A stretch of 59,755 nucleotides of DNA from Patescibacteria group bacterium (GCA_038065755.1 JBBTQJ010000031.1:1-59755), one strand, 5' to 3'. Shown: positions 14,382 through 59,755, numbered from the stretch's first letter. Notes: generated from the sequence alone by a model not told the origin. Numbers and translations: made by a program.

Positions 14382-14394
14382 GATTATTAAAATC

Positions 14395-16056
14395 ATGAAA
14401 CTAAGCGATTATTTAGTTAAATATTTGGAAGAAATTACAGACAGCGTTTTTTTGGTTTCAGGAGGAGGCCATATGCATACAGTTGACTCTATTGGAAAAT
14501 CAAAATTAAATGCTTATTGCTGTCACCACGAACAGGCTTGCGCTCTGGCGGCTGAAGGATATTCCAGAATAAACAATGATAAAATCGGAGTGGCGGCTGT
14601 TACTTCGGGCCCTGGAGGAACAAACGCCATTACCGGAGTCGGGTCTGCTTGGGTTGATGGGATTCCCATAATGGTTATTTCAGGGCAAGTAAGAAAAGAA
14701 ATAAAACTTACAAGAGAAGATATACAAATAGGTTTGAGAAGATTGGGCGAGCCTCAGGAAATAAATTTATTAGACTGCGTAAAACCTATTACAAAATATG
14801 CAGTATGCATAGAAAATCCCGATGAAATAAAATATCATCTTGATAAAGCATATTATCTGGCAAAAGAAGGAAAGCCCGGGCCGGTTTGGCTGGAAATTCC
14901 CTTAGACATACAGGCAGCTGAAATCGACGAAAATAATTTAAAAGAATTTGAAGCGCCCAAAAAACAAGTATACGAAATTCCTTTTGAAAAAATTACAGAA
15001 CAGCTTAACAAAGCAAAAAAGCCGCTGATGATTGTGGGAAACGGAATAAGATTGGCCGGCGCAATTCCTCAGTTATGGGAATTTATTGAAAAAACAAAAA
15101 TCAATGTGGTTTCTGCAATGAGCGGAACAGATTTGGTTAATGACGACTATCCTTATTATTTGGGCGAGCAGGGGCTGTCTGGAGTGGAAACCGCCAATTA
15201 CGCAGCTGACAACTGCGACTTATTATTGATAGCAGGAACAAGAATGCAAATCAGAAACACTTCTTTTGAATATAAAAAATTCGCTGAAAACGCCGTAAAA
15301 ATAATGGTTGATATAGACCCGGCTGAATTTTCTAAAAAAACATTAAAAATTGATATTCCCATTATAGCTAATGCCAAAGATTTTTTAGAGGGGCTGTTAA
15401 AGCAGGATATTAAATTAAAAAGATGGGATGTAGAAAAAAAGTCTATTTCTTATGAAGTTAACGATAAATATATTGATATTTATCAGTTTTTGGAAGCTTT
15501 AAGCAACAAGTGCGATTATCCGGTTGTCACTGCAAACGGCATGGCAGCTGAAACCCCTCACCAAGCCTTAAAATTAAAAAAAGGCCAAAGGTTGATTACC
15601 AACACCGCTTTTGGAGAAATGGGTAAGGGCTTGCCAATGGCAATTGGCGCCTCTGTTGCCCTAAATAAAAAATCGGTAATATGTATAGAAGGTGATGGCT
15701 CTATTATGATGAATATGCAGGAACTTCAGACAATAATTTTTCACAAGCTCCCGATAAAAATATTTTTATTAAACAATGATGGATATTATTCCATAAGAAA
15801 TACTCATTTGAAATTTTTTAACAAAATATTTGCCGCAGACGAAAATTCGGGAGTAGGGCTGCCTAACTGGAGCAAGTTAGCCCCTGCCTTTTCAATAAAA
15901 TACGAATCAATAAAAGAAGAAAAAGATTTATATAAAATAAAAGACGTTTTAGATTTTTCAGGTCCTGTTTTTTGCGAGGTCTTTATTGACCCCTATCAAA
16001 AAAAGCTCCCCAAATGGGAAGCCGGCCTTTTAACAAAATTATTAAAAGAGCCATAA
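14395..16056 (+). CDS. thiamine-diphosphate-dependent enzyme of the acetolactate-synthase large-subunit family (YerE-like candidate)
   Basis: I chose the ATG at 14395 (MKLSDYLVKYLEE) because the track start at 14347 overlaps the upstream CDS. The ThDP motif GDG-X24-NN is read directly (GDGSIMMNMQELQTIIFHKLPIKIFLLNN). Confidence 0.8.
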   Translation: MKLSDYLVKYLEEITDSVFLVSGGGHMHTVDSIGKSKLNAYCCHHEQACALAAEGYSRINNDKIGVAAVTSGPGGTNAITGVGSAWVDGIPIMVISGQVRKEIKLTREDIQIGLRRLGEPQEINLLDCVKPITKYAVCIENPDEIKYHLDKAYYLAKEGKPGPVWLEIPLDIQAAEIDENNLKEFEAPKKQVYEIPFEKITEQLNKAKKPLMIVGNGIRLAGAIPQLWEFIEKTKINVVSAMSGTDLVNDDYPYYLGEQGLSGVETANYAADNCDLLLIAGTRMQIRNTSFEYKKFAENAVKIMVDIDPAEFSKKTLKIDIPIIANAKDFLEGLLKQDIKLKRWDVEKKSISYEVNDKYIDIYQFLEALSNKCDYPVVTANGMAAETPHQALKLKKGQRLITNTAFGEMGKGLPMAIGASVALNKKSVICIEGDGSIMMNMQELQTIIFHKLPIKIFLLNNDGYYSIRNTHLKFFNKIFAADENSGVGLPNWSKLAPAFSIKYESIKEEKDLYKIKDVLDFSGPVFCEVFIDPYQKKLPKWEAGLLTKLLKEP

Positions 16057-16152: not shown

Positions 16153-16803
16153 ATGATAAAAAATATTATTTTTGATTTTGACGGAACGCTGGTTGATTCC
16201 AGTCCGGGAATTGTTAAAACTTTCGGACAAATTGCAAAAGAATTAACAACAAACGAAATTACAGAACAGCAAATAACGCAATTAATTGGTTTGCCCTTGG
16301 CAAAGTTTTTAAGCATTCTTTTAAATACAGACGACCATGAAATAATTAACAAGGGCAGTGTTTTGTTTCGGGAATATTACAGCAAAGACGGAATCAATCA
16401 TAATGTCGTTTACCCGGGAATTGAAGAGATGTTAATTTCTCTGAAAAATTTATCTTGCCGGCTTTTTATAGTAAGCAATAGAATAGAATTATTTTTGAAA
16501 AAAATATTAAAACAGCACGGCCTGGAAAAATATTTTGTTTTTGTGCGCGGCACAGACGGAACAGACGCGCAATCTAAAAAAGCAGATTATGTCAAAGACA
16601 TTATTGCAAAATATCAATTAAATAAAGAAGAAACAATTATTGTCGGCGATACAGATGGAGATATTGCAGCCGGAAAAGAAAATTCTATTTATAGCGTCGG
16701 AATAACATGGGGATATGGGGCAGAAGCCGGTCTGATTAAAGCCAAAGCAGATATGATTTGCCGCGCGCCCCAAGAATTGCAACAATTTATTGAAAAAACA
16801 TGA
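16153..16803 (+). CDS. HAD-superfamily phosphatase (phosphoglycolate-phosphatase-like)
   Basis: 216 aa with the FDFDGTLVDS motif I and GDTDGD motif. Confidence 0.8.
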   Translation: MIKNIIFDFDGTLVDSSPGIVKTFGQIAKELTTNEITEQQITQLIGLPLAKFLSILLNTDDHEIINKGSVLFREYYSKDGINHNVVYPGIEEMLISLKNLSCRLFIVSNRIELFLKKILKQHGLEKYFVFVRGTDGTDAQSKKADYVKDIIAKYQLNKEETIIVGDTDGDIAAGKENSIYSVGITWGYGAEAGLIKAKADMICRAPQELQQFIEKT

Positions 16804-32012: not shown

Positions 32013-35000
32013 ATGAATTTTTTTGAATTATTTTCAAAATACCAAAAACCTATAATATGGGGGGCCCTGTCTTTGGCGCTGATTGCCTTTTTTGACCAGG
32101 CGCTGGCAGTTGGTATTTTTTTGCTGACATTTTTTGTTGTAATAACCGTTGCAACGGCCATTAAAGTTGGCATTAAAGAAAAAGAATTTTATGCGCTTTT
32201 TTTAATTGTTATTTCAATTCATTTGCTGGCTGTGATGTTTATTTATTTTTACAATTTTTATCCTTTTGGAGGAGGGGAGGGCGACCAGTTTTATTATCAT
32301 AAAACAGCCGTTGAATTGTCTGAAAGATTCAGGCAGGGAAATTTTTCCATAAAAGGATTTGACGAAAATTATCCTTATTATTATGTGTCCCACTCTTATC
32401 CGGTTATAATAGGGGCCTTATATGCAATAACCGCTCCCCAAATAATTATAGGGCAGATATTAAATGTTTGGATTGTCGCCCTTTCATTATTATTTTTATA
32501 TTTGATAGTTGTTGAAATTTCCGGCTCTGTAAAAAAGGCTTTTTTAATTGGGATGATAGCTAATACATATCCGAGCTATATTTATTTTGGGAGTCTTTTA
32601 ATAAGAGACGCCATAATTGTTTTTTTGTCCTTATTTTTATTGCTGATGATTATAAGGCTTATTAAAAAGTTCTCTCGGAAAAATTTCATTTTTCTTTTTA
32701 TAATTCTCGGATTTTTAACGCATTTTCGTTTTTATGTCGGTTTTATTGGATTTTTAACTATTATTTTTTCTTTATTGTTTTCTTTTTCATTAAATTTAAA
32801 AAAGAAGCTTATTTTTATAATTACAGCCATTATTTTTCTAGCTGTTATTCCGCAGTTATTTGCCGGGCAGGGGTGGTTTGGCATTGATTTTTTCAATAAA
32901 TTTATTAATCAGGAAACTATCACCTCATTAAGAGAAAAAGAATATAAAAAAAATACTGTCAGCGACAGCCTTGCTTTGCCCGGGTCTGATGTGGTGGTGG
33001 AAACAGGTTTTGGAAATCCTGCTCTGTTTTTAAAAAATTCTTTGAAATCTTTTGCCTATATTTCGCTGGGGCCTTTGCCTTGGCAGATAAAATATTTCCG
33101 TCAGCTTTTTGCTTTGGCCGAAACCTTTCTCTGGTATTTTTCACTCTTTTTTATTCTCAGGGGTATTTTAAAATCATTTAAAAAATATAAAATTATTCTT
33201 CCCCTGGTTTTTTTCAGCATTGTGACATTTTTGGCGATAAGTTTGTTTACAAGCAATTTTGGCACATATATGAGAATAAGAATGCCGGCTTTTTTGGCTC
33301 TTTTGGCGCTGGCGGATTTCAATTTTAATAATAATATTTTTTGGCCGTCCTTTTTTCAAAGATTAAAAAAATCAGCAATTATAAAAAAAATTGGAGAATT
33401 ATCGGTTAAGGTTTATGAAAAAATAATGAGAGAGAAAATGACTCCGAATGTTTATGCTTTTTTAAAAAATCTCAGGTACACGATTTTTGGCTACAGCTTT
33501 GCGGCTTTTTGCGTTTTTGCTTTTGAAATAATGGCCGGGAGGATATTGGGAGCGGAAAATTACGGAAAATATGTTTTAAGCTCTATTATTGCTTTGTTTT
33601 TGTCGCTCTTGACAACCATAGGAACAACAATAGCCGTCATAAAATATATTGCCCGAGAGAAAAATGGGTCGGTTCATAAAAAAATTATCACATCAGCCTA
33701 TTTAATCGTGTTTTTTTTGATTTTTTTTGTAAGCTTTTTACTTTTTACTTTTTCGTCTTTTATATCTAAATTATTTTTTGTTCCTTTGGATATTTTTTAC
33801 TTAGCTATTTTATTTGCCGCCTGTTTTTCACTTTACAGCCTGGCAGCCGACATTCTTCGCGGGCTTTCTGAAATAAAAAAGCTGTCCTTTCTTAGAATGG
33901 CATACGGAGTTTTGATTATTTTATTTTTTATTGTCTTTTCTGCGGCAGGAAACGTTTCTTTCAAAACAGCCGTATATGTCATAAGTATTTCTTATTTTAT
34001 TGTATTTTTAGCTGTTACAAAAAATTTGCAAAGTTACATATCTTTTAAAATAGACAAACAGTGGGTAAAAAAACTTTTAAAGTACGGAATATATGCCATG
34101 GTGGGCGGGCCTTTATTCACTTTTTTACCAAGGATAGGGCAGATATTTGTGAATAAATACCTGACAGTTTCAGACGTGGGCATTTACAACGCATATTATC
34201 TTTCCTCTGTAAGCGTTATGGTGTTTTTTTATACGACGTTTGTAGTGGTGTTTTTTCCGACAGCTTCAAAATATAAAGAAAAAGGGCCGATTCTTAGAAA
34301 AATAAAAAAAATAATCCCTACTTTATTTTTAACAGGAACGCCTTTTTTATTTTTAACCCAATTAATTATTTTAAAACTTTACGGACGAGAATACCCTATT
34401 GATTATTTTTTAATGTTTTTATTTGCGGTTTCCGGAATTTTAATTTCAATATACGGGGTAATGGGCTGGCTTTTTTACTCAAAAAATATTTCCGGAGCCA
34501 AGCTTATTACAGGCTTAACAATTCTTGTGGCGGTTGCAAGCGTTCTTTTTAATATTTTTCTGATACCGTTATTTTCTTTGCAAGGAGCAGTTTTGGCGAT
34601 TATCTTTGCATACGTTATCGGAATAGCTTTTTTGTTCCTATTTGAAAAAAAACTTACAAGCGACGAAACAGCTGAAAAATATTCTGAAAAAATTAAAATC
34701 TGCTATGTGGCTTCTGTTGATACGACTTTTAAGTTTATATTGTTTAATCATCTTAAATTTTTAAAAAACGAAGGATATAATGTTTATGCAGTTTGTTCTG
34801 ACGGAAAATGGGTTGAGGAAATTGAAAAAGAGGGGATAAAAGTGAAAACCATAAGAATAAAAAGGAAAATAAGCCCCTTTTCAGATGCGATTGCTTTTTG
34901 GAAACTGTTTTTTTATTTCAAAAAAGAAAAATTTCATATTGTTCATACCCATACCTTAAAGCCTGCCTTTTGGGCGCAGATGGCGGCCAGGGCAGCTAAG

Positions 35001-35858
35001 GTTCCCATTGTTGTGAGCACCATGCACGGATTTGACTTTGGCAAGGAGTCTTCGTTTTTGAAGACTAATTTTTTCCTTTTTTTGGAAAAAATTGCGGCCA
35101 GACAATCAGATATTATTTTTTCTGTCAGTAAAAAAATTATTGAGGATTCTGTTAAAATCGGCATTTGCAAAAGAGATTCAATAAAATATTTAGGTGACGG
35201 AGTTGACCTTTCCAGGTTTGACCCCGCCAGGTTTTCAGAAGAATTTGTTGCCAAAAAAAAGAAAGAACTGGGGATTGGCAATTCAAAAAAAGTTATCGGT
35301 ATTGTAGCCAGATTGGTTGAAGAAAAAGGATATCTGGATTTATTCTCGGCGCTTGATATGGTTCTTAAAAAATTTCCGGAAACTTTATTGCTGGTGATAG
35401 GACAGGAAGAGCCGGAAAAAAAAGATGCCGTTAAAAAAGATATTTTTAAAAAATACAGGATAGAAAATAACGTAATATATTTGGGAGAAAGAACAGATAT
35501 GGAAGAAATTTATCCCTTAATGGATGTTTTTGTTTTGCCTTCGCATAGAGAGGGATTGGGTGTTGCGACAATAGAGGCCTCGGCAATGGAAAAACCAGCG
35601 ATAGTCACTAATACCGGAGGATGTCCTGAAACGGTTGATGATGGGAAAACGGGTATTTTGGTTCCTGTAAAAAATCCCGTTAAATTAGCAGAAGCCATAA
35701 TTTATATTTTTGAAAACCCAGAAAAAGTAAAAGAAATGGGCAAGGCAGGAAGAGAAAAAATTATTAAAGAATTTGACGAACAGCTGGTTTTTGACAGAAT
35801 TAATAAAGAATATCAGAACTTTATAGAAAAGAAATTAAAAAAAGAAAACAATGAATAA
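32013..35858 (+). CDS. three-module fusion of a GT-C-like membrane domain, a Wzx/MOP-flippase-like domain and a GT4 glycosyltransferase
   Basis: 1281 aa. Residues 1-~440 are paralogous to the ORF at 29665. Residues ~472-880 are a second multi-TM block starting at an internal Met (33426). Residues ~893-1281 are GT4 (KICYVASVDTT..., REGLGVATIEASAMEKPAIVTNTGG). Confidence 0.7.
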   Translation: MNFFELFSKYQKPIIWGALSLALIAFFDQALAVGIFLLTFFVVITVATAIKVGIKEKEFYALFLIVISIHLLAVMFIYFYNFYPFGGGEGDQFYYHKTAVELSERFRQGNFSIKGFDENYPYYYVSHSYPVIIGALYAITAPQIIIGQILNVWIVALSLLFLYLIVVEISGSVKKAFLIGMIANTYPSYIYFGSLLIRDAIIVFLSLFLLLMIIRLIKKFSRKNFIFLFIILGFLTHFRFYVGFIGFLTIIFSLLFSFSLNLKKKLIFIITAIIFLAVIPQLFAGQGWFGIDFFNKFINQETITSLREKEYKKNTVSDSLALPGSDVVVETGFGNPALFLKNSLKSFAYISLGPLPWQIKYFRQLFALAETFLWYFSLFFILRGILKSFKKYKIILPLVFFSIVTFLAISLFTSNFGTYMRIRMPAFLALLALADFNFNNNIFWPSFFQRLKKSAIIKKIGELSVKVYEKIMREKMTPNVYAFLKNLRYTIFGYSFAAFCVFAFEIMAGRILGAENYGKYVLSSIIALFLSLLTTIGTTIAVIKYIAREKNGSVHKKIITSAYLIVFFLIFFVSFLLFTFSSFISKLFFVPLDIFYLAILFAACFSLYSLAADILRGLSEIKKLSFLRMAYGVLIILFFIVFSAAGNVSFKTAVYVISISYFIVFLAVTKNLQSYISFKIDKQWVKKLLKYGIYAMVGGPLFTFLPRIGQIFVNKYLTVSDVGIYNAYYLSSVSVMVFFYTTFVVVFFPTASKYKEKGPILRKIKKIIPTLFLTGTPFLFLTQLIILKLYGREYPIDYFLMFLFAVSGILISIYGVMGWLFYSKNISGAKLITGLTILVAVASVLFNIFLIPLFSLQGAVLAIIFAYVIGIAFLFLFEKKLTSDETAEKYSEKIKICYVASVDTTFKFILFNHLKFLKNEGYNVYAVCSDGKWVEEIEKEGIKVKTIRIKRKISPFSDAIAFWKLFFYFKKEKFHIVHTHTLKPAFWAQMAARAAKVPIVVSTMHGFDFGKESSFLKTNFFLFLEKIAARQSDIIFSVSKKIIEDSVKIGICKRDSIKYLGDGVDLSRFDPARFSEEFVAKKKKELGIGNSKKVIGIVARLVEEKGYLDLFSALDMVLKKFPETLLLVIGQEEPEKKDAVKKDIFKKYRIENNVIYLGERTDMEEIYPLMDVFVLPSHREGLGVATIEASAMEKPAIVTNTGGCPETVDDGKTGILVPVKNPVKLAEAIIYIFENPEKVKEMGKAGREKIIKEFDEQLVFDRINKEYQNFIEKKLKKENNE

Positions 35859-47914: not shown

Positions 47915-48584
47915 ATGGCAAAAAAAATTTCTAAACAGGTTAATATCTTAATTGGATCTAAAAAGATTATTTCAAGCTGTTTAAAAAGAGTTATAAAAAA
48001 TAACTCTTTTAATTATAGAACTTTTGGCGTGGACATTGAACCTCATATATCTTCTATATTGGTGGAAATTTTTAAGAAAAAAGGTCTTATAAAATCAGAA
48101 AAAGACTATGTTCTAGCCCCAGACAAAAACTATTTTTCCAGATTTTGAATTAAGATTGCCGCCATTTTTAGCTATAGAATATAAGTCGGGGAATAAAGTT
48201 AAATTGTCGGGAGGAAGATGGGTTAGTTGTAAAAATAGTAATAACGATATGGGTACTTTGAATACTTGGTTAAAGAAAATAAAAAGATTTGGAGACGAAA
48301 ATATTTATTATATTTTCGTTATTTATAAAATAAATAGCATAGATAAAAAACTCGTAGATGTGCAGATAGCCCCATTTTATAAATTTATAGGATTAAACAA
48401 GGTCGGATTACTTAGATATAGAGAAAAAGACGGAAATTTAAGGCCCAAAGATTTTGATGAGCCTTCTCCTGTTAAATCATTTAATCAATTCAAAAATTTG
48501 TTTGAAAAAACGATTATTTACCGTTCCACGAGAATAATTAAAAAACATCAGGCTATTTTAAAATCAATTAAATTTAAAAAATAG
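47915..48584 (+). pseudogene. probable PD-(D/E)xK restriction-endonuclease gene split by a 1-nt frameshift (track ORFs 47915-48148 and 48156-48584)
   Basis: The two ORFs are in different frames. The frame of ORF2 is open back to 48117 and there reads PQTKTIFPDFELRLPPFLAIEYK, which is PD-X13-E-Y-K. It converges on and overlaps the methyltransferase gene. A5 and T5 runs lie at the junction. Confidence 0.45.
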
Positions 48585-50075
48585 GGGATTGTCAAGCGGA
48601 TATACTCCTTCCTTTTCAGAAATAGTCAAATTTTTTAAATATTTAGATGTTTTACCGTTATGGTTATAAACATAGCCATTAGTGAGCCTATAGCTCACAT
48701 TTTTTATTTTATTTTCTATTATTGATTTATATTTAGGATCTATATCAATTCCTATAAAATGTCGTCCTAATCTTTTTGCAGCTGACGCCGTTGTTCCAGC
48801 CCCGATAAAAGGATCTAATACTATATCTTTTTCGTTTGTTGTCATCAATATTAATCTTTCCAACAATGGTTCAGGGAGTTGGCAAGGGTGTTCGTCTCTT
48901 CTATTTTTATGTCTTATTCTATGGATATCAGTCCAAACATCGCTCAATAATGCGCCAAGTGGATTTATTTGGCTTTTTTTTCCACCGTAATCTTTTATCA
49001 TTCCATTACAATGAGGGCATTTTTTATGCGGCGACCTGAGTTCATTAAATTTAAAACCTTTTTGGCTTTTTGTATAAAATAAGATTCCATAGTGTGCTGG
49101 AAGTAATGTTTTTCCAAGGGGTATGCTCATAGAGTCCCATGTAACCCAATGTTTAAAAAACGCAATTTTATTGAGATGATTAGCATAATAAATAAGCCAT
49201 TTAGGGATGTTGTGCACCAATATAGACCCTGTGGGTTTTGTTATTCTAACCATTTCGGTTAACCATTGTTCGCACCACTTAATATATTCTTCTTCGCTCT
49301 TTTTATCTTTGTAGTTGCCGTATTTTTTATTTAGGTTGAACGGGGGGTCTGCAAAAGTTATATCTACTGAATTATCTGGTATTTTTTTCATTATTTCTAT
49401 GGCGTCTCCACAAATAATTTGATCTATTGGTAATTCGGGGAATTTTTCGTTTTGATTAACTTTTCCTTTTTGTTCTGTATTTATACTGTTAATCACATCT
49501 ATAACAATTCCCTGTATATCAAATTTCCTGTTTTTATTTATAATTATTGGTTCAAATTTTTTATTTGCCGGCTGTAATCTGATGAAATTTCGTTCTCTGT
49601 AAAATTTTTTAAGCGTAGTCTCGCTATTATCAATAAGCGCCACAACCTTTTGTCCATTTTCTGCTGTATTTTGTTTTTTTATTAAAACAATATCTCCATT
49701 GTTTATATTTTCATCTACCATGCTGTTTCCAACCACCCTTAAAGCAAAAATTTCACCAGACTTTGGAAGTTTGTTGTCTGGCACGGCAATTGTTTCTTTT
49801 TGCTCAAACATTTCAAGCGGCTTGCCTGCAATTATTTCTCCCAAGAGGGGAATTTGAAACATTATTTGACCGATATTTAACTTAATTGATCTTGCTTTAT
49901 AATCATCTTTTTTTAAATACCCCTTTTCTATTAACGTTTCTACGTATTGATAAACTGTGGGCTTTTTTATTTTAAAATGTTTTGCCACTTCTTCATAAGA
50001 AGGGGAATAATCTTTTTCTTTAATATATTTTTTAATATAATCTAAAATTTGTTTTTGCTTAGGAGTTAATAACAT
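48564..50075 (-). CDS. fusion of a complete LexA-type repressor (wHTH + S24 autopeptidase) with a beta-class N6/N4 DNA methyltransferase
   Basis: 503 aa. Residues 1-~200 are LexA-like, with Ala83-Gly84 (EIIAGKP), Ser118 (GNSM) and Lys156 (TLKKF). Residues ~215-503 are methyltransferase-like, with DPPF at 243-246 and DPFIGAGTT near the C-terminus. Confidence 0.8.
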   Translation of the reverse strand: MLLTPKQKQILDYIKKYIKEKDYSPSYEEVAKHFKIKKPTVYQYVETLIEKGYLKKDDYKARSIKLNIGQIMFQIPLLGEIIAGKPLEMFEQKETIAVPDNKLPKSGEIFALRVVGNSMVDENINNGDIVLIKKQNTAENGQKVVALIDNSETTLKKFYRERNFIRLQPANKKFEPIIINKNRKFDIQGIVIDVINSINTEQKGKVNQNEKFPELPIDQIICGDAIEIMKKIPDNSVDITFADPPFNLNKKYGNYKDKKSEEEYIKWCEQWLTEMVRITKPTGSILVHNIPKWLIYYANHLNKIAFFKHWVTWDSMSIPLGKTLLPAHYGILFYTKSQKGFKFNELRSPHKKCPHCNGMIKDYGGKKSQINPLGALLSDVWTDIHRIRHKNRRDEHPCQLPEPLLERLILMTTNEKDIVLDPFIGAGTTASAAKRLGRHFIGIDIDPKYKSIIENKIKNVSYRLTNGYVYNHNGKTSKYLKNLTISEKEGVYPLDNPLFFKFN

Positions 50076-52639: not shown

Positions 52640-53668
52640 ATGAACAAATTAAATTATCCACAAATTTACACAAAACTTACAAAAGGCCTTTCTGAAAAAA
52701 CGAAAGGTATTTTTGAGCGCAGATTCGGTATAAAATCTAAAAACCCCGAAACTTTGGAAATGATCGGAAAAAGTATGGGGATTACAAGGGAAAGAGTGCG
52801 CCAAATAGAAGAGGCCGGTTTTAATTTTGTGAAAAAAAATAATAAAGAAACATTAGATGGCGTTTTTGCGGAATTCGCGGATTATTTTAAAAATAACGGA
52901 GAATTTAAAAAAGAAGAAGCTGTTTTAGAAGAACTGGGAGGAAAAAACCACAAGCCCTATGTTTTATTTTTGCTAACCTTGGGAGAGCAGTTTTCTAAAG
53001 TTTGCGAGAAAAAGGATTTTTATTATTTTTGGTCAACAATGCAAGACGCCAAAAACAAAGTAAGCCAAACATTAAAATCATTGGTTTTGGCTTTGCAAAA
53101 AATAGGCAAGCCTATATTTAAAGAAGAATTTTTAACAGAAATATCTTCAAGCCAAAATTTACCAGAGCCTGCTTTGTTTTCTTATCTTGAAGTTTCAAAA
53201 AAAATTCAAAACAACAGCGAAGGAAAAATTGGCTTGATTGACTGGCCGGAAATAAAGCCAAGGGGAGTAAAAGACAAGGCGTTTTTAGTTTTTAAAAAAC
53301 ATCAAAAGCCCTTGCATTTTACCAAGGTGGCAGAATTGATAGACCAATTGGGATGCAACGAGCCCAACAAAAAAACTTATCCGCAAACAGTTCATAATGA
53401 GCTTATTAAAGACCAAAGGTTTGTTTTGGTGGGCAGGGGAACATATGCTTTGAAAGAATGGGGATATGAGGAAGGAACCATAAAAGATGTTATCAAAAAA
53501 GTTTTAGAATCAAAAACCCAGCCGGCAAACAAAGAAGAAATTATAAAAGAAGTTTTAACCCAAAGATTAGTTGCCTCCAACACAGTGTTAATGAACCTAA
53601 ACAATAAAAAATATTTTGGAAAAGACGAACAAGGGAAATATTTTTTAAGAAAAACCCAAACAGCATAA
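52640..53668 (+). CDS. sigma-70 region-4-like HTH protein with C-terminal HARE-HTH-like domain
   Basis: 342 aa. LEMIGKSMGITRERVRQIEEAGF is sigma region 4.2-like. The C-terminal segment is FTKVAELI...VLVGRGTYALKEWG. Confidence 0.6.
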   Translation: MNKLNYPQIYTKLTKGLSEKTKGIFERRFGIKSKNPETLEMIGKSMGITRERVRQIEEAGFNFVKKNNKETLDGVFAEFADYFKNNGEFKKEEAVLEELGGKNHKPYVLFLLTLGEQFSKVCEKKDFYYFWSTMQDAKNKVSQTLKSLVLALQKIGKPIFKEEFLTEISSSQNLPEPALFSYLEVSKKIQNNSEGKIGLIDWPEIKPRGVKDKAFLVFKKHQKPLHFTKVAELIDQLGCNEPNKKTYPQTVHNELIKDQRFVLVGRGTYALKEWGYEEGTIKDVIKKVLESKTQPANKEEIIKEVLTQRLVASNTVLMNLNNKKYFGKDEQGKYFLRKTQTA

Positions 53669-53697
53669 ATTGCAGAATAATTGCAAATTAACTAAAG

Positions 53698-53727
53698 CAA
53701 AAAAATACCCGCTCGGGTATTTTTTTG
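53698..53727 (+). terminator. rho-independent terminator
   Basis: The stem is AAAAATACCC / GGGTATTTTT with a GCTC loop, followed by a T7 run. It lies 30 nt after the stop at 53668. Confidence 0.8.
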
Positions 53728-53742
53728 CTGTGTTGCGCGTTG

Positions 53743-53772
53743 TTGATTTCAAATAAATAGGGGGGTATAATA
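53743..53772 (+). promoter_or_regulatory. sigma70-type promoter (TTGATT-N18-TATAAT)
   Basis: Read directly. It is followed by the AT-rich inverted repeat and the 53866 operon. Confidence 0.5.
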
Positions 53773-53782
53773 AAGAAAGTTA

Positions 53783-53848
53783 AAAATTAAAAGTCAAAAG
53801 TTAAAAATATAATGACGCGCCAGCAATACTTTTAACTTTTAATTTTTG
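53783..53848 (+). repeat. 20-bp inverted repeat (1 mismatch) with a ~26-nt GC-containing loop in the leader of the 53866 operon
   Basis: The arms are AAAAATTAAAAGTCAAAAGT and ACTTTTAACTTTTAATTTTT. The loop contains GACGCGCCAGC. Confidence 0.6.
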
Positions 53849-53865
53849 ACTTTCAACTTGAAAAT

Positions 53866-54090
53866 ATGTCTTATTTTTATTTAGGAATTATTATTTTGTT
53901 TATTGCCACGGTTATTTATTATATAGGGATTTTCTCTTTAATTTTTTATTGGCACTTAAAAAAAATATCTTATATTATAGTTCCTCTTCTTTTTACCTTT
54001 AGATTCTTTTTTATGGGTTTTTTAATTGTATCAGCGGTTTCTCTTATATTGGAAAATTTGCCGAAATTAATAAGCTTAATGCAACGTTAA
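53866..54090 (+). CDS. small hydrophobic membrane protein
   Basis: 74 aa with two to three predicted TM stretches. It is the first gene after the promoter and inverted repeat. Confidence 0.55.
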   Translation: MSYFYLGIIILFIATVIYYIGIFSLIFYWHLKKISYIIVPLLFTFRFFFMGFLIVSAVSLILENLPKLISLMQR

Positions 54091-54098
54091 TATCTATT

Positions 54099-55508
54099 AT
54101 GGCAAAAGGCCTTCCTTCGTATTTATTTTGGCTAGACTGGGTTAAAAAAATTGTATGGGATTCTTTTTGGTGGGTAATTTTAATGCTCTTTGTTTTTTGG
54201 GTTCCTTTTTTAAGGGTGTGGTGGTGGTTTTTTGCTCCGTTTTTTCTTTCTATACAATTAAAAATTCTTTATTTATGGTGGATTGAATGGGATTACGATT
54301 ATCAAAATGCAAAATGGGCGCTTTTAGATATAGTTCCTCCCAGAGAAGTTTTAGCTCCTTTCAAAGCAATGGAAGACGTATTTTCAGCTGTTTGGCCCAT
54401 AATAGATGTGGCCAACTTTAGAGAAGCGTGGTGCGACGGCGAATTAACTAACGGCCCTTATTGGTGCTCTTGGGAAATTGCCAGCATTGAAGGAAAAATA
54501 CATTTTTATGTAAGGTGCCGAGAAGAGCATCGTCTAGTTATTGAATCCTCTCTTTATGCCCACTATCCCGACATAGAAGTTCATCAAGTGTCTGACTATA
54601 CCAAACTTGTTCCCCCAACGGTGCCCAACGAAGATTGGGATATGTATGGAGAAGATTGGGACCTGCACCGAAGCGATATTTTTCCCATAAAAACATACGA
54701 GAAGTTTTTTGAACCGCAGGGAGAAAAAATTTCAGCCGAAGAAAAAAGAATGGATCCTGTAATTGCTTTATTGGAAGGAATGTCAAGGCTTGGGCAAGGA
54801 GAACATTATTGGGTTCAGTTTATTACGGTTCCTATACAAGATCACGACGAACCAGATTGGAGGAAAGAAGGCGAGAGGGTAATTAATAAAATATCCAAGC
54901 GATCGGAAAAAAGAGAGTCAACTCTTTTTGAAGATTTAAGTTATATAGCCAAACAGGTTATTTTTGGTCCGGAAAAAGAAGGCAAGGGAGAGTCGGCGTC
55001 ATATTCTTGGGCGCCAACCCAAATAGACGAAGAAACTGGCGAGAGAGAGATGGCTATTACCCCCGGCGAAAGAGAAATTATTACCGAAATAGAAAATAAA
55101 TTAAAAAAGCCCGTTTACAGAACAACTATCAGGGGTGTTTATGTTGCAAGGCGGGAAAATTGGAAATCTCCCCATAAGGTGATTATGAGGTCTTATATGG
55201 GGCATTTTTCTACTATCAATTTAAACCATTTTAGATTTTCAGGAAAAACAAGGCCGAAAGTTCATTACCTCTGGAGAAAAAGAAGAGTTTTTCAAAGAGC
55301 CAGAAAAATGTTTAGAATGACCGTTTTAAGATTTCCTCCTTTGTTTCCCCAAAGAATGTCAGATGATTTGAATCCTATTTTAAGCACAGAAGAGATGGCA
55401 ACCCTGTTTCACTTCCCATTAAGAGTGACGGGAATGGTGACCCCGACAATGGTTAAAGTTGAGTCAAAAAAATCCGGACCTCCTCCAAATCTACCGGTTG
55501 ATGAATAA
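54099..55508 (+). CDS. membrane-anchored protein of unknown function (Trp-rich N-terminal TM hairpin plus a large soluble domain)
   Basis: 469 aa with WWVILMLFVFWVPFLRVWWWFFAPFFL. I recognise no domain. It is tightly linked to the downstream ATPase. Confidence 0.5.
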   Translation: MAKGLPSYLFWLDWVKKIVWDSFWWVILMLFVFWVPFLRVWWWFFAPFFLSIQLKILYLWWIEWDYDYQNAKWALLDIVPPREVLAPFKAMEDVFSAVWPIIDVANFREAWCDGELTNGPYWCSWEIASIEGKIHFYVRCREEHRLVIESSLYAHYPDIEVHQVSDYTKLVPPTVPNEDWDMYGEDWDLHRSDIFPIKTYEKFFEPQGEKISAEEKRMDPVIALLEGMSRLGQGEHYWVQFITVPIQDHDEPDWRKEGERVINKISKRSEKRESTLFEDLSYIAKQVIFGPEKEGKGESASYSWAPTQIDEETGEREMAITPGEREIITEIENKLKKPVYRTTIRGVYVARRENWKSPHKVIMRSYMGHFSTINLNHFRFSGKTRPKVHYLWRKRRVFQRARKMFRMTVLRFPPLFPQRMSDDLNPILSTEEMATLFHFPLRVTGMVTPTMVKVESKKSGPPPNLPVDE

Positions 55509-55525
55509 CATAATTAAATTTATTT

Positions 55526-57364
55526 ATGTCAAAAGATCTAACTTATATTGCTAAAACAAATTTTCGCAATAAGGAACAAAAATTCGGAATTAAAAGAACT
55601 GATCGGCGTCAGCACACGTACGTAATCGGAAAGACTGGAACTGGTAAGACTCAGTTTTTAAAAAATATGGCCTTGCAGGATATCAACAATGGGCAAGGGC
55701 TTGCTATTATTGATCCTCACGGAGAGTTTGTTGAAGAAATTTTAGACAATATCCCTCCTCACAGAATCAATGATGTGGTTTATTTTAATCCAGCGGATAT
55801 GGAATATCCTATTAGTTTTAATATTATGGAAGTGCAAGATCCAAGGTATAAGCATTTAATCGCATCGGGATTGATTGGCATTTTTACCAAAATATGGGCC
55901 AATGTATGGTCGGCTCGTATGGAATATATTCTTGCCAATTGTATTTTAGCTTTGCTGGATACTCCCGGCACCACGCTCTTGGGCATACCAAGAATGCTGG
56001 TTGATAGAGATTACAGGCAAAAAATAATTAATAACCTTAAAGACCCGGTGGTAAAATCATTTTGGATTAACGAATATGAAGAGTGGGAATCACGCTATCG
56101 CAACGAAGCCATTGCTCCCGTTCAAAATAAGGTTGGGCAGTTTCTGAATGTTTCTTTTGTAAGGAATATTGTCGGCCAAGCAAAGAACACTATTGATATT
56201 GATGAAATAATGAATAACCAAAAAATTCTGTTAGTTAATGTTTCTAAGGGAAGAATTGGCGAGGATAATTCAGCTATTTTGGGAGCTATGATCATTACTA
56301 AAATACAGTTGGTGGCAATGGAGCGCGTTAGAATTCCAGAAGATGAAAGAAAAGATTTTTATCTTTATGTTGACGAATTTCAAAATTTTGCCACAGATTC
56401 TTTCGTGAATATTTTATCAGAGGCCCGTAAATACCGCTTGAATCTGATTATTGCCCATCAATACGTTGGGCAGTTAGTCACCGACACAAGCACAGCTGTC
56501 AGGGATGCTGTTTTTGGCAACGTGGGCACTATGATTTCTTTCCGAATAGGAGCAGCTGACGCGGAATTTTTAGAGCCGGAGTTTACCCCGGAATTTTTGC
56601 AGAATGATTTAATTCGCTTAGATAACCGCAATATTTATATAAAACTTATGATAGACGGCATTACTTCCAGGCCATTCTCTGCCACAACTATTACTCTTGA
56701 CCCCGTTGTTAAAGATGATAAAAAACGAGAAAAAATAATTGAAACTTCCAGATTAAAGTATGCCCACAAGCTAAATATCGTTGAAAAAGAAATTAATCGT
56801 TGGGCAACAAACCAAGACGTTTCTGGCGCTCAAAACCCCTCTGATTTTTCTAACCCTCATAATTATTCCAAGCCTCCATATCAGCCGAAAATTCTTAGAT
56901 CTTCTGATTCTACAAAATTATACGATGTTAAATGTTCAAATTGCGGAAAAGACACCAAGGTTATTTTTGAGCCGATTGCCGGGAGGCCTGTTTACTGCAA
57001 ATCTTGTTTAAAAAAAAATTACCCGGTTAAATCTGCCGAAAGCGGTATTTCATCAGAGAAAAAACAATTTAATCGGATAAGAGCAGATCAACAGCAAAGA
57101 ACAGAGGCGGACTTGGGCAGAACAGGGAAAAATCCCGAGGAATCTGCGGCCTTAGGAGAATTAGGTATAGAATTTGAGCCTCAAGCAAAGATAGAAAATG
57201 TTTCTTTTTATAATCCGAAAAAAAAACAAGACGAACAGAAGCATGATAGTTTAAAAAGAAAAGAAATCAATTTGTCGGAATTAAGGCAAGCATTGGAGGA
57301 GTCTTTAAAGAGCGGTTTAGATTATAAAGAAAAAAGCTCAAAAGAAAAACTAGAAAACAAATAG
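55526..57364 (+). CDS. VirD4/TraG/TraD-like (type IV coupling-protein-like) P-loop ATPase with C-terminal CxxC-x17-CxxC zinc ribbon
   Basis: 612 aa with Walker A GKTGTGKT, Walker B LYVDEFQNF, IIAHQYVGQL, and the ribbon CSNC-X17-CKSC at 56933-57007. It has no TM segment of its own. Confidence 0.6.
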   Translation: MSKDLTYIAKTNFRNKEQKFGIKRTDRRQHTYVIGKTGTGKTQFLKNMALQDINNGQGLAIIDPHGEFVEEILDNIPPHRINDVVYFNPADMEYPISFNIMEVQDPRYKHLIASGLIGIFTKIWANVWSARMEYILANCILALLDTPGTTLLGIPRMLVDRDYRQKIINNLKDPVVKSFWINEYEEWESRYRNEAIAPVQNKVGQFLNVSFVRNIVGQAKNTIDIDEIMNNQKILLVNVSKGRIGEDNSAILGAMIITKIQLVAMERVRIPEDERKDFYLYVDEFQNFATDSFVNILSEARKYRLNLIIAHQYVGQLVTDTSTAVRDAVFGNVGTMISFRIGAADAEFLEPEFTPEFLQNDLIRLDNRNIYIKLMIDGITSRPFSATTITLDPVVKDDKKREKIIETSRLKYAHKLNIVEKEINRWATNQDVSGAQNPSDFSNPHNYSKPPYQPKILRSSDSTKLYDVKCSNCGKDTKVIFEPIAGRPVYCKSCLKKNYPVKSAESGISSEKKQFNRIRADQQQRTEADLGRTGKNPEESAALGELGIEFEPQAKIENVSFYNPKKKQDEQKHDSLKRKEINLSELRQALEESLKSGLDYKEKSSKEKLENK

Positions 57365-57367
57365 AAT

Positions 57368-59068
57368 ATGACTAAAATATGCCAAAATTGCAAACAGGAC
57401 TTTATCATAGAGCTTGACGACTTTGCGTTTTACGAAAAAATAAAAGTCCCGCCACCGACTTTTTGTCCCGAGTGCAGAATTGTCCGGCGCATGAGTTGGA
57501 GAAATGAACGCGCTCTTTACCGCAGAAAGTGCGACGCTACCGGCAAAGATATTATTACAATGTTCTCTCCCGAACAGCCTCTTTTGGTTTATGAAAGAGA
57601 TTATTGGTGGTCTGACAAATGGGATCAGCTTGCCTCGGGGCGTGATTATGATTTTTCAAAACCCTTTTTTCAGCAGTTCCGCGAATTATTTGAAAAAGCC
57701 CCCCTTCCCAATCTTGCCAATTCTAATGTTGTAAATTCTGATTATGGTAACCACAGCCTTGATATTAAGAATTGCTATCTTTTTTATGCCAGCAAAGGAT
57801 GCGAAGATACATTATATTGCGCCGGAGCTATAGATTGTAAAAATTCTCTTGATTTATACAAGACTCTCAATACAACTCAGTGCTACGACAATACTTTGTG
57901 CGGCGATTTAAACCGCGTTTTTTTCTCATATGACAGTGATGAAAGCGTCAGTTGCGACTTTCTTCATGCGTGTAAAAATATGATAGATTCTTTGGGTTGC
58001 ATAAATTTACGCAATAAATCAAACTGCATTTTAAACCAGCAATATACAAAAGAAGAATATAAAAAAGAACGGGCCAAGTATGATTTTGGAAGTTATAAGG
58101 CGCTTTGTGAATTTAGAAAAAAGTTTGCTGAATTTATAAAGGAATATCCAAGACGTTACGGTTTTATTTATAAATCGAAAAACTGCATTGGCGACAATAT
58201 TCTAAATTCTAAAAACGTGTATATGGGTTTTGATCTGTTTGGTGAAATTGAGGATAGTAAATATGTTATACATGGTTTTAGCGGCAAGGATTATTATGAT
58301 GCATATGGTTTTGGAGCAAACGCGAATAATTCTTATGAAGTCGTGGATACCGGAGATAACGCCACCCTTAATCTTTTTGCCGTTTTCACTCATTCCTGCC
58401 AGAATACAAACTATACTTATGCCTGCAAAAATTGCGCTAATTTATTTGGGTGCGTGGGGCTGCGCAGTAAAAAATATTGCATTTTAAATAAGCAATATAC
58501 CAAAGAAGAATATGAAACTCTTGCGCCAAAAATTATTGCTCATATGAAAAATATGCCTTATGTAGATAAACGGGGCAGAGCTTACAAATACGGCGAATTT
58601 TTCCCTACAGAACTTTCTCCTTTTGCTTATAACGAAACAATAGCCCAGGAATATTATCCAAAAACTAAATCAGAAGTTTTTGAAGCAGGGTATAAGTGGA
58701 GAGAGCCCGATGCAAAACAGCATGCCATTACTCTTCAACCAGCTGATCTGCCAGACCACATAAAAGATGTTCAAGATGACATTTTAAATCAAGTGATAGC
58801 GTGCGAACACAGAGGAAATTGCAATGAACAGTGTATGGGGGCGTTTAAAATTATTCCTTCTGAGCTTCAGTTTTACCGGGCAATGAACCTTGCTCTGCCA
58901 CGGTTGTGCTCTAACTGCAGGCACTATCATCGGCTTAGCCAGCGCACCCCGTTTAAGTTATGGGATAGAACTTGCGCAAAATGCGGAAAGGAAATTAAAA
59001 CATCATACGCTCCCGATCGCGAAGAAATTATTTACTGCGAGGCCTGCTACAATAGCGAAGTTGCATAA
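57368..59068 (+). CDS. Cys-rich protein with N-terminal CxxC...CxxC ribbon, two internal repeat modules and C-terminal CxxC-x17-CxxC ribbon
   Basis: 566 aa with CQNC-X24-CPEC. The duplicated motif is GC(I/V).LR.K..CILN.QYTKEEY at ~57971-58066 and ~58424-58516. The C-terminal ribbon is CAKC-X17-CEAC. Confidence 0.55.
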   Translation: MTKICQNCKQDFIIELDDFAFYEKIKVPPPTFCPECRIVRRMSWRNERALYRRKCDATGKDIITMFSPEQPLLVYERDYWWSDKWDQLASGRDYDFSKPFFQQFRELFEKAPLPNLANSNVVNSDYGNHSLDIKNCYLFYASKGCEDTLYCAGAIDCKNSLDLYKTLNTTQCYDNTLCGDLNRVFFSYDSDESVSCDFLHACKNMIDSLGCINLRNKSNCILNQQYTKEEYKKERAKYDFGSYKALCEFRKKFAEFIKEYPRRYGFIYKSKNCIGDNILNSKNVYMGFDLFGEIEDSKYVIHGFSGKDYYDAYGFGANANNSYEVVDTGDNATLNLFAVFTHSCQNTNYTYACKNCANLFGCVGLRSKKYCILNKQYTKEEYETLAPKIIAHMKNMPYVDKRGRAYKYGEFFPTELSPFAYNETIAQEYYPKTKSEVFEAGYKWREPDAKQHAITLQPADLPDHIKDVQDDILNQVIACEHRGNCNEQCMGAFKIIPSELQFYRAMNLALPRLCSNCRHYHRLSQRTPFKLWDRTCAKCGKEIKTSYAPDREEIIYCEACYNSEVA

Positions 59069-59095: not shown

Positions 59096-59290
59096 ATGAA
59101 CAAAACATCACCAAAAAATTATATCAAGATAAGACGCGACGAGTATCTGCGTCTCAAAAAACTTCAAGAGCGCTTTGAATCGTTTTTGAACTATTTCATG
59201 CACCTAAAAGATATTAAAGAGGCGAGGCAAGATATTAAAATGGGGAATATAATGTCCCAAGAAAAGCTTTTTAAGAAAATGGGACTATAA
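59096..59290 (+). CDS. putative antitoxin of the adjacent RelE/ParE toxin
   Basis: 64 aa, charged and helical-looking. It lies 16 nt upstream of the toxin gene. The call is based on position only. Confidence 0.5.
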   Translation: MNKTSPKNYIKIRRDEYLRLKKLQERFESFLNYFMHLKDIKEARQDIKMGNIMSQEKLFKKMGL

Positions 59291-59306
59291 TTTTTCTTGG
59301 TAAATT

Positions 59307-59555
59307 ATGGAAATTTACTACACCCTTAAAGCGCAAAGTGATTTAGAAAATCTTTCTAGAAATGCACAAGAACGCATCGCTCATAAGATGCGTTTTTACG
59401 TGTCTCAAAAAGATCCGATTAAGTTTGCCAAAAAACTTATTGATTCGCGTGAAGGAGAATTTCGTTTTCGCGTAGGCGATTGGCGCATCTTCTTTGATGT
59501 GAAAGGAAATAAAATTTTTATTCTTAGTATTAAACATCGTTCAAAAGCGTATTAG
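59307..59555 (+). CDS. RelE/ParE-family type II toxin
   Basis: 82 aa. GEFRFRVGDWRIFFDVKGNKIFILSIKHRSKAY is a classic RelE/ParE C-terminal pattern. Confidence 0.8.
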   Translation: MEIYYTLKAQSDLENLSRNAQERIAHKMRFYVSQKDPIKFAKKLIDSREGEFRFRVGDWRIFFDVKGNKIFILSIKHRSKAY

Positions 59556-59557
59556 CT

Positions 59558-59755
59558 ATGTTAAGCGAAACAAAAAATTGCCAAAACTGTAAACAGGACT
59601 TTGTAATTGAGCCCGACGATTTTGCGTTTTACGAGAAAGTTAAAGTTCTAGCACCAACAATGTGTCCGGAATGTAGATATCAGCGACGTGCCGCGAATCG
59701 AAATGGGAGGTACCCATTTCTTCGGACACTTATTCTACAAGTAATTTCGACCTTT
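59558..59755 (+). CDS. 5' part of a second Cys-rich protein (paralogue of 57368), truncated by the window end
   Basis: MLSETKNCQNCKQDFVIEPDDFAFYEKVKVLAPTMCPECRYQRR parallels MTKICQNCKQDFIIELDDFAFYEKIKVPPPTFCPECRIVRR. Confidence 0.7.
   Translation, partial: MLSETKNCQNCKQDFVIEPDDFAFYEKVKVLAPTMCPECRYQRRAANRNGRYPFLRTLILQVISTF

Follow-up and report, generated by a model that had tools for sequence, protein, structure and literature searches.

What can a coupling protein-type ATPase do in a stretch of genome that encodes no other part of a type IV secretion system (T4SS)? The question is raised by a 59,755-nucleotide contig of a Patescibacteria group bacterium (GCA_038065755.1 JBBTQJ010000031.1:1-59755), the whole of which is called the window here. 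Near its end, four open reading frames (ORFs) encode a 74-aa hydrophobic protein, a 469-aa membrane protein of the DUF8128 family (PF26449), a 612-aa ATPase resembling the type IV coupling proteins (T4CPs) VirD4 and TrwB, and a 566-aa Cys/Zn-rich protein (Table 1). A preliminary description made from the sequence had taken these ORFs as one unit with its own promoter, in which the membrane protein might anchor the ATPase as part of a minimal translocation device. In our analysis, the conserved unit was found to consist of two genes, those of the DUF8128 protein and the ATPase, the other two being accessory. The pair probably works as a translocation motor in its own right and is probably no piece of a conjugative element, and the explanation as a whole that we judge probable on balance, if narrowly so, is that of a DUF8128-anchored T4CP-like motor with DNA as its most likely substrate. 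T4CPs as a kind were already known; the new element proposed here is the split, DUF8128-anchored and T4SS-independent form of the motor.

A predicted coupling protein-type ATPase without a membrane segment

The four ORFs of the preliminary description are real, as are the motifs quoted for the ATPase, GKTGTGKT, LYVDEFQNF and IIAHQYVGQL (Walker A at residues 35-42 and the Walker B DE at 283-284). In Pfam, the protein was matched by TrwB_AAD_bind (PF10412) over residues 26-341 (E 1.1e-15; 57.9 bits against a cut-off of 20.5) and further by TraG-D_C and DUF87. Matches in NCBIfam were partial only (TraD, VirD4 and CedD, the last at 5e-7 and in the Walker region only), and TrwB was the only sequence match in the PDB. 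When the profile of the ATPase family (alignment A3, in which the catalytic residues are invariant) was compared by hhalign with residues 118-393 of TrwB from R388 (record NC_028464, used for the R388 comparisons), the two aligned over ATPase residues 23-319 with a probability of 93.6% and an E of 2e-7. An insertion between Walker A and Walker B has a size like that of the all-alpha domain of T4CPs, and its alignment with TrwB is of low confidence.

The same profile aligned with the VirB4 proteins TrwK and TrsE in the Walker A region only, neither of the VirB4-type Pfam families AAA_10 and CagE_TrbE_VirB matched the ATPase, and Pfam FtsK_SpoIIIE reached 0.098 only. The matches at the level of TrwB and the Walker A-only overlap with VirB4 therefore point to a motor of the T4CP branch that has no N-terminal transmembrane domain. 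As judged from its sequence, the ATPase is a hexamer-type P-loop protein of the T4CP (VirD4/TrwB) branch of the FtsK-HerA superfamily, and it groups with the T4CPs and not with a non-translocase family. No transmembrane or hydrophobic segment was detected in it by hydropathy. A zf_Tbcl_2 zinc ribbon (CxxC-x17-CxxC) lies at residues 464-497, and the charged C-terminal tail closes with the INLSELRQALEESL motif (581-594), so that the description of an ATPase without the usual anchor and ending in a ribbon and a tail is borne out by hydropathy and Pfam. Identity between the ATPases is about 70-82% within the clade and 45-54% across distant Patescibacteria.

The DUF8128 protein and the ATPase form a conserved pair

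The 469-aa protein encoded directly ahead of the ATPase contains 24 Trp residues and a hydrophobic stretch at 17-46 (hydropathy), and its layout is that of a Trp-rich N-terminal membrane segment or hairpin (~17-60) followed by an alpha/beta domain of ~400 aa. PF26449 is listed as 'weak' in the precomputed annotation for this protein and many of its homologues; in our local Pfam copy, PF26449 did not match it even at E = 10, and NCBIfam left it unmatched as well. Sequence searches of the PDB gave nothing useful for the protein or for the DUF8128 family profile, and the literature searched holds no mention of DUF8128 or PF26449. The family is large, with 1,349 clusters at 50% identity. An AlphaFold2 (AF2) model built from 137 diverse sequences was of good quality (predicted local distance difference test (pLDDT) 89, predicted template-modelling score 0.84) and shows a long N-terminal helical membrane segment, then alpha/beta domains.

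A profile scan of the GTDB species genomes for DUF8128 recovered at least 563 loci, and 80 species-level loci were analysed. In 69 of the 80, the ATPase gene directly followed that of DUF8128 on the same strand, and the median gap between them was 16 nt. A recurring gene order was observed (secD, secF, f1, DUF8128, ATPase, pgk, recJ-like, RNase H, murJ), in which f1 encodes a protein with predicted helix-turn-helix (HTH) domains. A homologue of f1 was found immediately 5' of DUF8128 in 63/78 loci, including loci without secDF, making it a candidate DNA-binding partner of the pair on sequence grounds. The pair was found at this position in genomes whose names span over a dozen candidate phyla of Patescibacteria; the record titles include Nealson-, Moran-, Magasanik-, Uhr-, Lipton-, Terry-, Wolfe-, Portnoy-, Gribaldo- and Niyogibacteria, Spechtbacterales, Paceibacterota and others. 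The proposed four-gene unit is not conserved as such: the pair of the 469-aa and 612-aa proteins is widely conserved, the 74-aa gene is specific to a clade and the Cys-rich family is also found far from the ATPase.

The synteny bears on whether the locus could be the edge or remnant of a conjugative or integrative element, or an anti-phage module built on a HerA- or mad8-like ATPase. In PADLOC, the ATPase gave partial matches to mad8 (4e-14), HerA and DndH, all covering only the generic P-loop core, and the other three proteins of the run gave none. Together with a ParE-type toxin-antitoxin pair nearby and the closeness of the contig end, these partial matches are what such a reading could draw on. 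Set against them are the same housekeeping synteny among the 80 species-level genomes, a GC content that shifts only slightly (0.38 at the locus vs 0.30-0.37 elsewhere in the window), the absence of any relaxase, integrase, tRNA or mating-pair-formation (MPF) gene from the window, and a scan of viral contigs in which no DUF8128 relative was found. No T4SS or relaxase gene was seen among the recurrent neighbour families inspected in the 80 loci either. The synteny, shared across many candidate phyla, is of a vertical, chromosomal and housekeeping type and speaks against the edge of a conjugative element; the preliminary description had named such an edge as the finding that would speak against it. 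The mobile-element reading is largely refuted by this synteny and by the gene content of the window, and the defence-system reading was dropped on account of the partial PADLOC matches and the core synteny. Taken together, we consider both very improbable.

Both proteins are halves of single phage and Candidate Phyla Radiation proteins

The strongest indication that the two proteins work together came from fused counterparts. In PHROGs, both matched the same family, phrog_5156 (824 positions), the 469-aa protein at positions 80-287 (6e-8) and the 612-aa protein at 398-806 (2e-59), so that DUF8128 corresponds to the N-terminal half and the ATPase to the C-terminal half of one phage protein. Foldseek comparison of the DUF8128 model with viral models gave Bacillus phage G gp156 (1e-16), phage JL (5e-14) and phage Slash (1e-13). 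By hhalign, the DUF8128 profile aligned with gp156 28-323 at 98.4% probability (E 9e-15) and with CampHawk_129 at 70%. On the ATPase side, tblastn of the window protein against phages matched gp156 at ~381-761 (2e-32) and also SPO1-like phages, D6E and PBC5, and these include several of the same proteins that were matched by DUF8128 in Foldseek. The tblastn search of the phage collection with DUF8128 was blank, so this half of the link is visible to profile and structure methods only.

A natural fusion was also found on a metagenome contig of the Candidate Phyla Radiation (CPR) type. It encodes a 795-aa protein (L110_4944_7331) made up of one N-terminal transmembrane segment, KRR, DUF8128 and the ATPase, with Walker A at residue 399. 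Because both window genes are halves of phrog_5156 and natural fusions exist, we take it as strongly supported that the pair forms one machine. Those N-termini of phage fusions that were inspected hold no transmembrane segment, and the globular domain of DUF8128 would therefore be cytoplasmic and lie directly N-terminal to the motor. The earlier suggestion that the upstream membrane protein supplies the anchor gains from all of this, that is, from the 69/80 adjacency that marks it as an obligate partner, the two halves of phrog_5156, gp156 and the CPR fusion.

The hosts of the phrog_5156 phages are Bacillus and Geobacillus. The CampHawk homologue (CampHawk_129) is flanked by ParM-like and Replic_Relax genes, and that of vB_BceS-M2 by genes for a single-strand annealing protein, a Gam-like protein and replication proteins. 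A 'DNA translocation operon' has been described in phage 0305phi8-36, with a similar operon in SPO1 (Pathria et al. 2012, PMC3357382). It encodes a MobC-like relaxase, a VirD4-like coupling ATPase without a transmembrane segment, a VirB6-like protein and MreB/ParM-like proteins, and its coupling ATPase (orf201) was related by the authors to SPO1 gp27.4. CampHawk_129, whose flanking genes resemble those of this operon, is likely the counterpart of SPO1 gp27.4; the link of phrog_5156 to gp27.4 and orf201 runs only via CampHawk, an Okubovirus like SPO1. The phrog_5156 proteins gp156 and CampHawk_129 are single polypeptides with no transmembrane segment in the N-termini inspected, and the phage genes sit beside MobC/Replic_Relax relaxase-like and ParM-like genes. 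The CPR version differs from them in being divided over two chromosomal genes, in having a membrane anchor and in lacking a relaxase.

A further relative of the ATPase, 620 aa long (1e-25), is encoded in a 22-kb phage-labelled record of Microcystis phage Mwe-JY31 (L096, 6533-8395), with a ParA-like gene adjoining; this element may be plasmid-like.

Comparison with coupling proteins, VirB4 and DNA pumps

The window ATPase has the P-loop nucleotide-binding domain and the order of motifs of the T4CPs VirD4, TrwB and TraD, and TraD of F likewise has a long C-terminal tail, which may bind a partner. Canonical T4CPs, however, carry an N-terminal transmembrane domain of their own, and the alignment of the window ATPase begins only at TrwB 118. 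They have no DUF8128 partner, whereas in Patescibacteria the separate 469-aa protein would supply the anchor. The window ATPase further differs from them by its zinc ribbon, its chromosomal housekeeping site and the lack of adjoining relaxase or MPF genes.

A second likeness is that to VirB3 + VirB4 (TrwM/TrwK of R388, or the VirB3-VirB4 fusions), which as a pair combine a membrane hairpin, an alpha/beta N-domain of ~400 aa that is not an ATPase, and a RecA-like ATPase from the superfamily to which the window ATPase belongs. In Foldseek searches of the PDB with the DUF8128 model, the only probable matches were TrwK/VirB4 chains (E ~1e-3, template-modelling score 0.30-0.34), with probabilities of 0.87-1.0 for 13 chains and 0.69 for one. 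The model also matched phage G gp155 at 5e-6, which is itself a true homologue of VirB4 (1e-19 with pGO1 TrsE by BLASTP; 5e-13 with the VirB4 structure 4ag5). No sequence similarity was found by hhalign between the DUF8128 profile and TrwK, pGO1 TrsD, TrsE or gp155, and BLASTP gave no link between gp156 and the N-domains of gp155 and TrsE. As all of these sequence searches were blank, the likeness to the VirB4 N-domain is one seen by Foldseek only. The modelled layout of membrane hairpin, N-domain and motor is suggestive of VirB3 + VirB4, from which the pair differs in having no VirB6 or VirB8 neighbours and an ATPase that overlaps VirB4 at Walker A only. It suggests that T4CPs, VirB4 and the DUF8128-ATPase proteins share an ancestral layout of N-domain and motor.

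The gene of gp155 (L091, 3196-4845) is matched end to end by phrog_2666, which is labelled 'terminase large subunit'; gp155 has AAA_10 and P-loop_TraG matches and this label is probably wrong.

VirD4-type proteins have been surveyed in Patescibacteria before (PMC12102498). Among 3,035 genomes, 5,713 homologues were counted in 2,918 (96%) and VirB4 in 2,417; only 148 of the 5,713 T4CP-like genes were near virB4, and their role was left open. About 80% of Patescibacteria were reported to have T4SS genes. In Ca. Southlakia epibionticum, the t4cp homologue was non-essential, and for this reason the authors could not exclude exaptation. The essential T4SS cluster of Southlakia contains no recognisable coupling protein (Wang et al. 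2023).

These data allow the window ATPase to be seen as the ordinary coupling protein of an MPF-FATA-like T4SS encoded elsewhere, with DUF8128 as an adaptor that would dock on VirB4/VirB6 and recruit effectors or DNA. The homology to T4CPs fits, as do the frequency of T4SSs and the distance at which t4cp can sit from virB4, and the DUF8128 fold is weakly like the VirB4 N-domain, which in R388 contacts VirB3 and VirB8. It is harder to reconcile with T4CP-like genes being present in more genomes than VirB4 and so seldom near virB4, with a Southlakia T4SS that is essential and has no recognisable coupling protein in its cluster while the t4cp homologue is dispensable, and with fused homologues in phages that have no full T4SS. 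We hold it to be unlikely, if worth keeping in sight.

A housekeeping chromosome pump of the FtsK/SpoIIIE/SftA kind, serving segregation, dimer clearance at division or a replication-linked task with no transfer device, would agree with the near-universal presence of the ATPase, its very high conservation even between distant lineages, its fixed housekeeping site and the ParM- and ParA-like partition genes that adjoin the phage relatives. The Southlakia t4cp homologue being non-essential and the ATPase being nearer to T4CPs than to FtsK count against it, and we find it improbable. The idea that the pair stands in for a missing FtsK was set aside, though on a weak ground: papers on the TM7x transcriptome mention FtsK, which only hints at a canonical FtsK in at least some Patescibacteria. 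FtsK/SpoIIIE, Streptomyces TraB and the archaeal Ced DNA-import ATPase do belong to the same superfamily as the window ATPase and share with the preferred motor the concept of one membrane-tethered hexameric ATPase moving DNA without a full T4SS. The matches of the window ATPase to them are marginal, however, and the architecture of the anchor differs.

Accessory genes and arrays of Cys-rich paralogues

The 74-aa product is hydrophobic, with two transmembrane-like stretches by hydropathy. It was matched by phmmer in L001, L008, L099, L101, L103 and L149; similar small hydrophobic ORFs occupy its position in L009-L011 without a phmmer match, and among the 80 GTDB loci such ORFs were found at L008-L011 only. 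The gene is a clade-specific accessory.

The 566-aa protein is the first member of a tandem paralogue array belonging to a very large family. It has 31 Cys and both starts and ends with treble-clef zinc fingers, the C-terminal one being of the same type (zf_Tbcl_2) as the ATPase ribbon; two internal repeats contain many short beta strands. Hydropathy revealed no transmembrane segment in the Cys-rich proteins. The AF2 model was of medium quality (pLDDT 70), and nothing in the PDB matched its fold; left-handed beta-helix enzymes scored highest, at a probability <0.05. Over 46 members, the terminal zinc fingers were the only recurrent meaningful Pfam matches; 11 of the 46 showed a weak Med15_N match of low-complexity type.

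Five copies follow the ATPase in an 845-kb Staskawiczbacteria contig, and at least nine tandem copies of ~570 aa are found in L094 (GCA_040384425.1, 287-17776). Eighty metagenome loci centred on the Cys-rich family were examined, of which 38 are at least 12 kb long. A T4CP-like ATPase was present in 26 of the 80 and, within 10 kb, in 19 of the 38 longer ones. The recurrent order was [f1], [74 aa], DUF8128, ATPase-L, one to five Cys-rich genes, ATPase-S and more Cys-rich genes, where ATPase-S is a shorter protein (485-512 aa) without the ribbon and 47% identical to the window ATPase. In most genomes that carry the DUF8128-ATPase pair, no Cys-rich gene adjoins it, and one single Cys-rich copy sits near ftsAZ.

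Two observations on the family stand apart from the pair. The arrays of L094, L136 and L153 reach nine or more copies with no ATPase in the locus, and such arrays would take up several percent of a ~1 Mb genome for one uncharacterised family. In Nomurabacteria (L002/L003, 10001-11716), a lone member lies inside a polyamine-biosynthesis cluster with saccharopine-dehydrogenase-like, ornithine/diaminopimelate decarboxylase, CN hydrolase and agmatine deiminase genes.

The arrays could be read as the cargo of a dedicated protein export system, in which the long and short ATPases would recognise the Cys/Zn-rich paralogues in the manner of EssC and the pore would be formed by the DUF8128 segments and the 74-aa protein. 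Arrays of one to eight paralogues beside or between T4CP-like ATPases in half of the longer loci (e.g. L095 and L001) and the C-terminal ribbon shared by the ATPase and the Cys-rich proteins are consistent with export, and high Cys content is typical of extracellular proteins. The Cys-rich proteins, however, have no transmembrane segment and start directly with a zinc finger, and their several zinc-ribbon motifs point to folding in the cytoplasm; their identity across close relatives is 72-83%, unlike that of proteins secreted for interaction with a host. The family also occurs far from any ATPase, in many arrays and single copies, and most genomes with the pair have no Cys-rich gene next to it. 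Export of the Cys-rich proteins is for us a poor prospect, only marginally ahead of the chromosome pump. The likeness to EssC of the type VII secretion system is one of analogy, since translocase ATPase genes there flank tandem paralogue arrays as they do here; no homology was seen beyond the superfamily, and the Cys-rich proteins look cytoplasmic and zinc-binding.

A model for the DUF8128-anchored motor

In the DUF8128-anchored motor that we favour, the globular domain of DUF8128 would be cytoplasmic and dock on the ATPase ring, and its Trp-rich membrane segments would tether the ring, replacing the N-terminal transmembrane domain of canonical T4CPs. ATP hydrolysis would then power the movement of a polymer, either along the ring or through it, at the membrane. 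This polymer would most likely be DNA, which is favoured because of the known activity of the family, the nucleic-acid type of the zinc ribbon and the conserved neighbour with a DNA-binding HTH, and because the phage relatives sit in replication, partition and relaxase modules. Translocation itself, with DNA or protein as the cargo, is inferred. In the lineage of the window, the module may have been extended by the small protein with two transmembrane segments and by the Cys/Zn-rich paralogue arrays, which are often bracketed by the short second ATPase and are candidate adaptors or cargo.

A fuller version of this model would be a T4SS-independent minimal translocon, in which a membrane ring of DUF8128 lies under the T4CP-like hexamer and, with the short ATPase and the Cys/Zn-rich proteins as adaptors or cargo, moves DNA or those proteins across a single membrane. 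We regard this version as doubtful, on a level with the ordinary coupling protein.

Several observations weigh against a DUF8128-anchored DNA motor. The zinc ribbon is absent from 22 of the 68 ATPases, and DUF8128 is without an adjacent ATPase in 10 of the 80 loci. In another clade, the order is DnaK, ATPase-L, Cys-rich genes and ATPase-S, with no DUF8128 nearby. The adjacency of f1 could be plain synteny, and in the window f1 is transcribed separately. The Southlakia t4cp homologue is non-essential (PMC12102498), although it may belong to a different family from the window ATPase, and the operon of 0305phi8-36 is dispensable in the laboratory (PMC3357382). Finally, the identity between Cys-rich orthologues, about 80%, is so high that a housekeeping role looks more fitting for them than that of secreted cargo.

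With the DUF8128-anchored motor, the orphan VirD4-like ATPase of Patescibacteria gains an obligate partner, a membrane anchor and a topology. It also acquires a fused phage counterpart, earlier read as a coupling ATPase of DNA translocation, and becomes linked in the genome to the Cys/Zn-rich proteins, a large, highly conserved and uncharacterised family. What was an 'orphan T4CP' becomes a defined system of two to four components that would be testable in tractable Saccharibacteria if the pair is present there. Patescibacteria represent a large share of bacterial diversity and have tiny genomes and a dependence on hosts. Should the minimal translocon hold true, it would add a new class to the machines of uptake or secretion, one that is related to the 'DNA translocation' proteins of phages and has a central part in a life that depends on hosts.

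The locus and the rest of the window

Table 1. Coordinates of the features at the end of the window
Feature	Coordinates	Strand	Basis or remark
f1, 342-aa protein, conserved upstream neighbour	52640..53668	+	Pfam: sigma-70 region 4 HTH 16-62, HARE-HTH 210-274
Terminator-like hairpin	53696..53729	+	Inverted-repeat search; 16-nt perfect arms, A and T runs either side
Promoter-like site TTGATT-17-TATAAT	53743..53771	+	Consensus scan, 10/12 matches; consensus match only
AT-rich leader hairpin, long inverted repeat	53775..53854	+	Between promoter-like site and first start codon
74-aa ORF	53866..54090	+	ORF call
DUF8128 (PF26449) protein, 469 aa	54099..55508	+	ORF call
T4CP (VirD4/TrwB)-type P-loop ATPase, soluble, 612 aa	55526..57364	+	ORF call
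Cys/Zn-rich protein, 566 aa	57368..59068	+	ORF call
ParE-type toxin-antitoxin pair	59096..59555		Between Cys-rich paralogues 1 and 2; ParE toxin 82 aa (PF05016), 64-aa upstream partner
Second Cys-rich paralogue, start only	59558..59755	+	Translation opens MLSETKNCQNCKQDFVIEPDDFAFYEK; ends with contig and window

The four ORFs all lie on the plus strand, with gaps of only 8, 17 and 3 nt between them. The terminator-like hairpin closes f1, which in the window is thus a separate transcript, and the promoter-like site behind it agrees with the promoter claimed for the run, both elements being consensus matches only. The leader hairpin is predicted to fold at -25.2 kcal/mol (z = -6.6), with 27-nt arms that are 93% complementary. 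No counterpart of it was detected in the upstream stretches sampled at the homologous gene of five relatives.

The unit had been thought to end at 59068, which is not the case, as a second Cys-rich paralogue starts past the ParE pair. An equivalent ORF is present in L004-L006 (phmmer 8e-19). Because this paralogue runs off the contig, the window holds only the beginning of a larger locus. The contig end at 59755, inside the paralogue, is common to the three independent assemblies shown (L004, L005 and L006), and a break at one point in three assemblies suggests that a repeat caused the gap in assembly. Over its final ~20 residues, the partial ORF departs from the family sequence, and this part may be an artefact of assembly. 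In L099, L101, L103 and L149, the first Cys-rich gene is directly followed by another Cys-rich gene or the short ATPase; with no toxin-antitoxin pair between these genes there, the ParE pair of the window looks like a recent insertion.

In the rest of the window, genes for the synthesis of nonulosonic acid and polysaccharides, for radical-SAM enzymes and for glycosyltransferases are followed by murB, secA, a LexA-methyltransferase fusion, secD, secF and f1. As had been described, no other T4SS or conjugation gene was found; the search for T4SS, relaxase, pilin and integrase genes covered the 59.7-kb window, except that the ORFs at 14347-16056 and 16153-16803 were not compared with any library. 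An exact-match look-up of the first of these gave no record.

Positions 1-43900 form a surface-glycan cluster, which is very large for so small a genome. It contains two NeuB-like enzymes, at least six radical-SAM/B12-binding/SPASM proteins and many glycosyltransferases and methyltransferases, as well as a 1,281-aa flippase-glycosyltransferase fusion at 32013-35858. Finally, the minus strand encodes at 48564-50075 the LexA-methyltransferase fusion mentioned above, a 503-aa protein of unusual architecture in which a LexA DNA-binding domain is joined to an S24 peptidase and an N6/N4 DNA methyltransferase.

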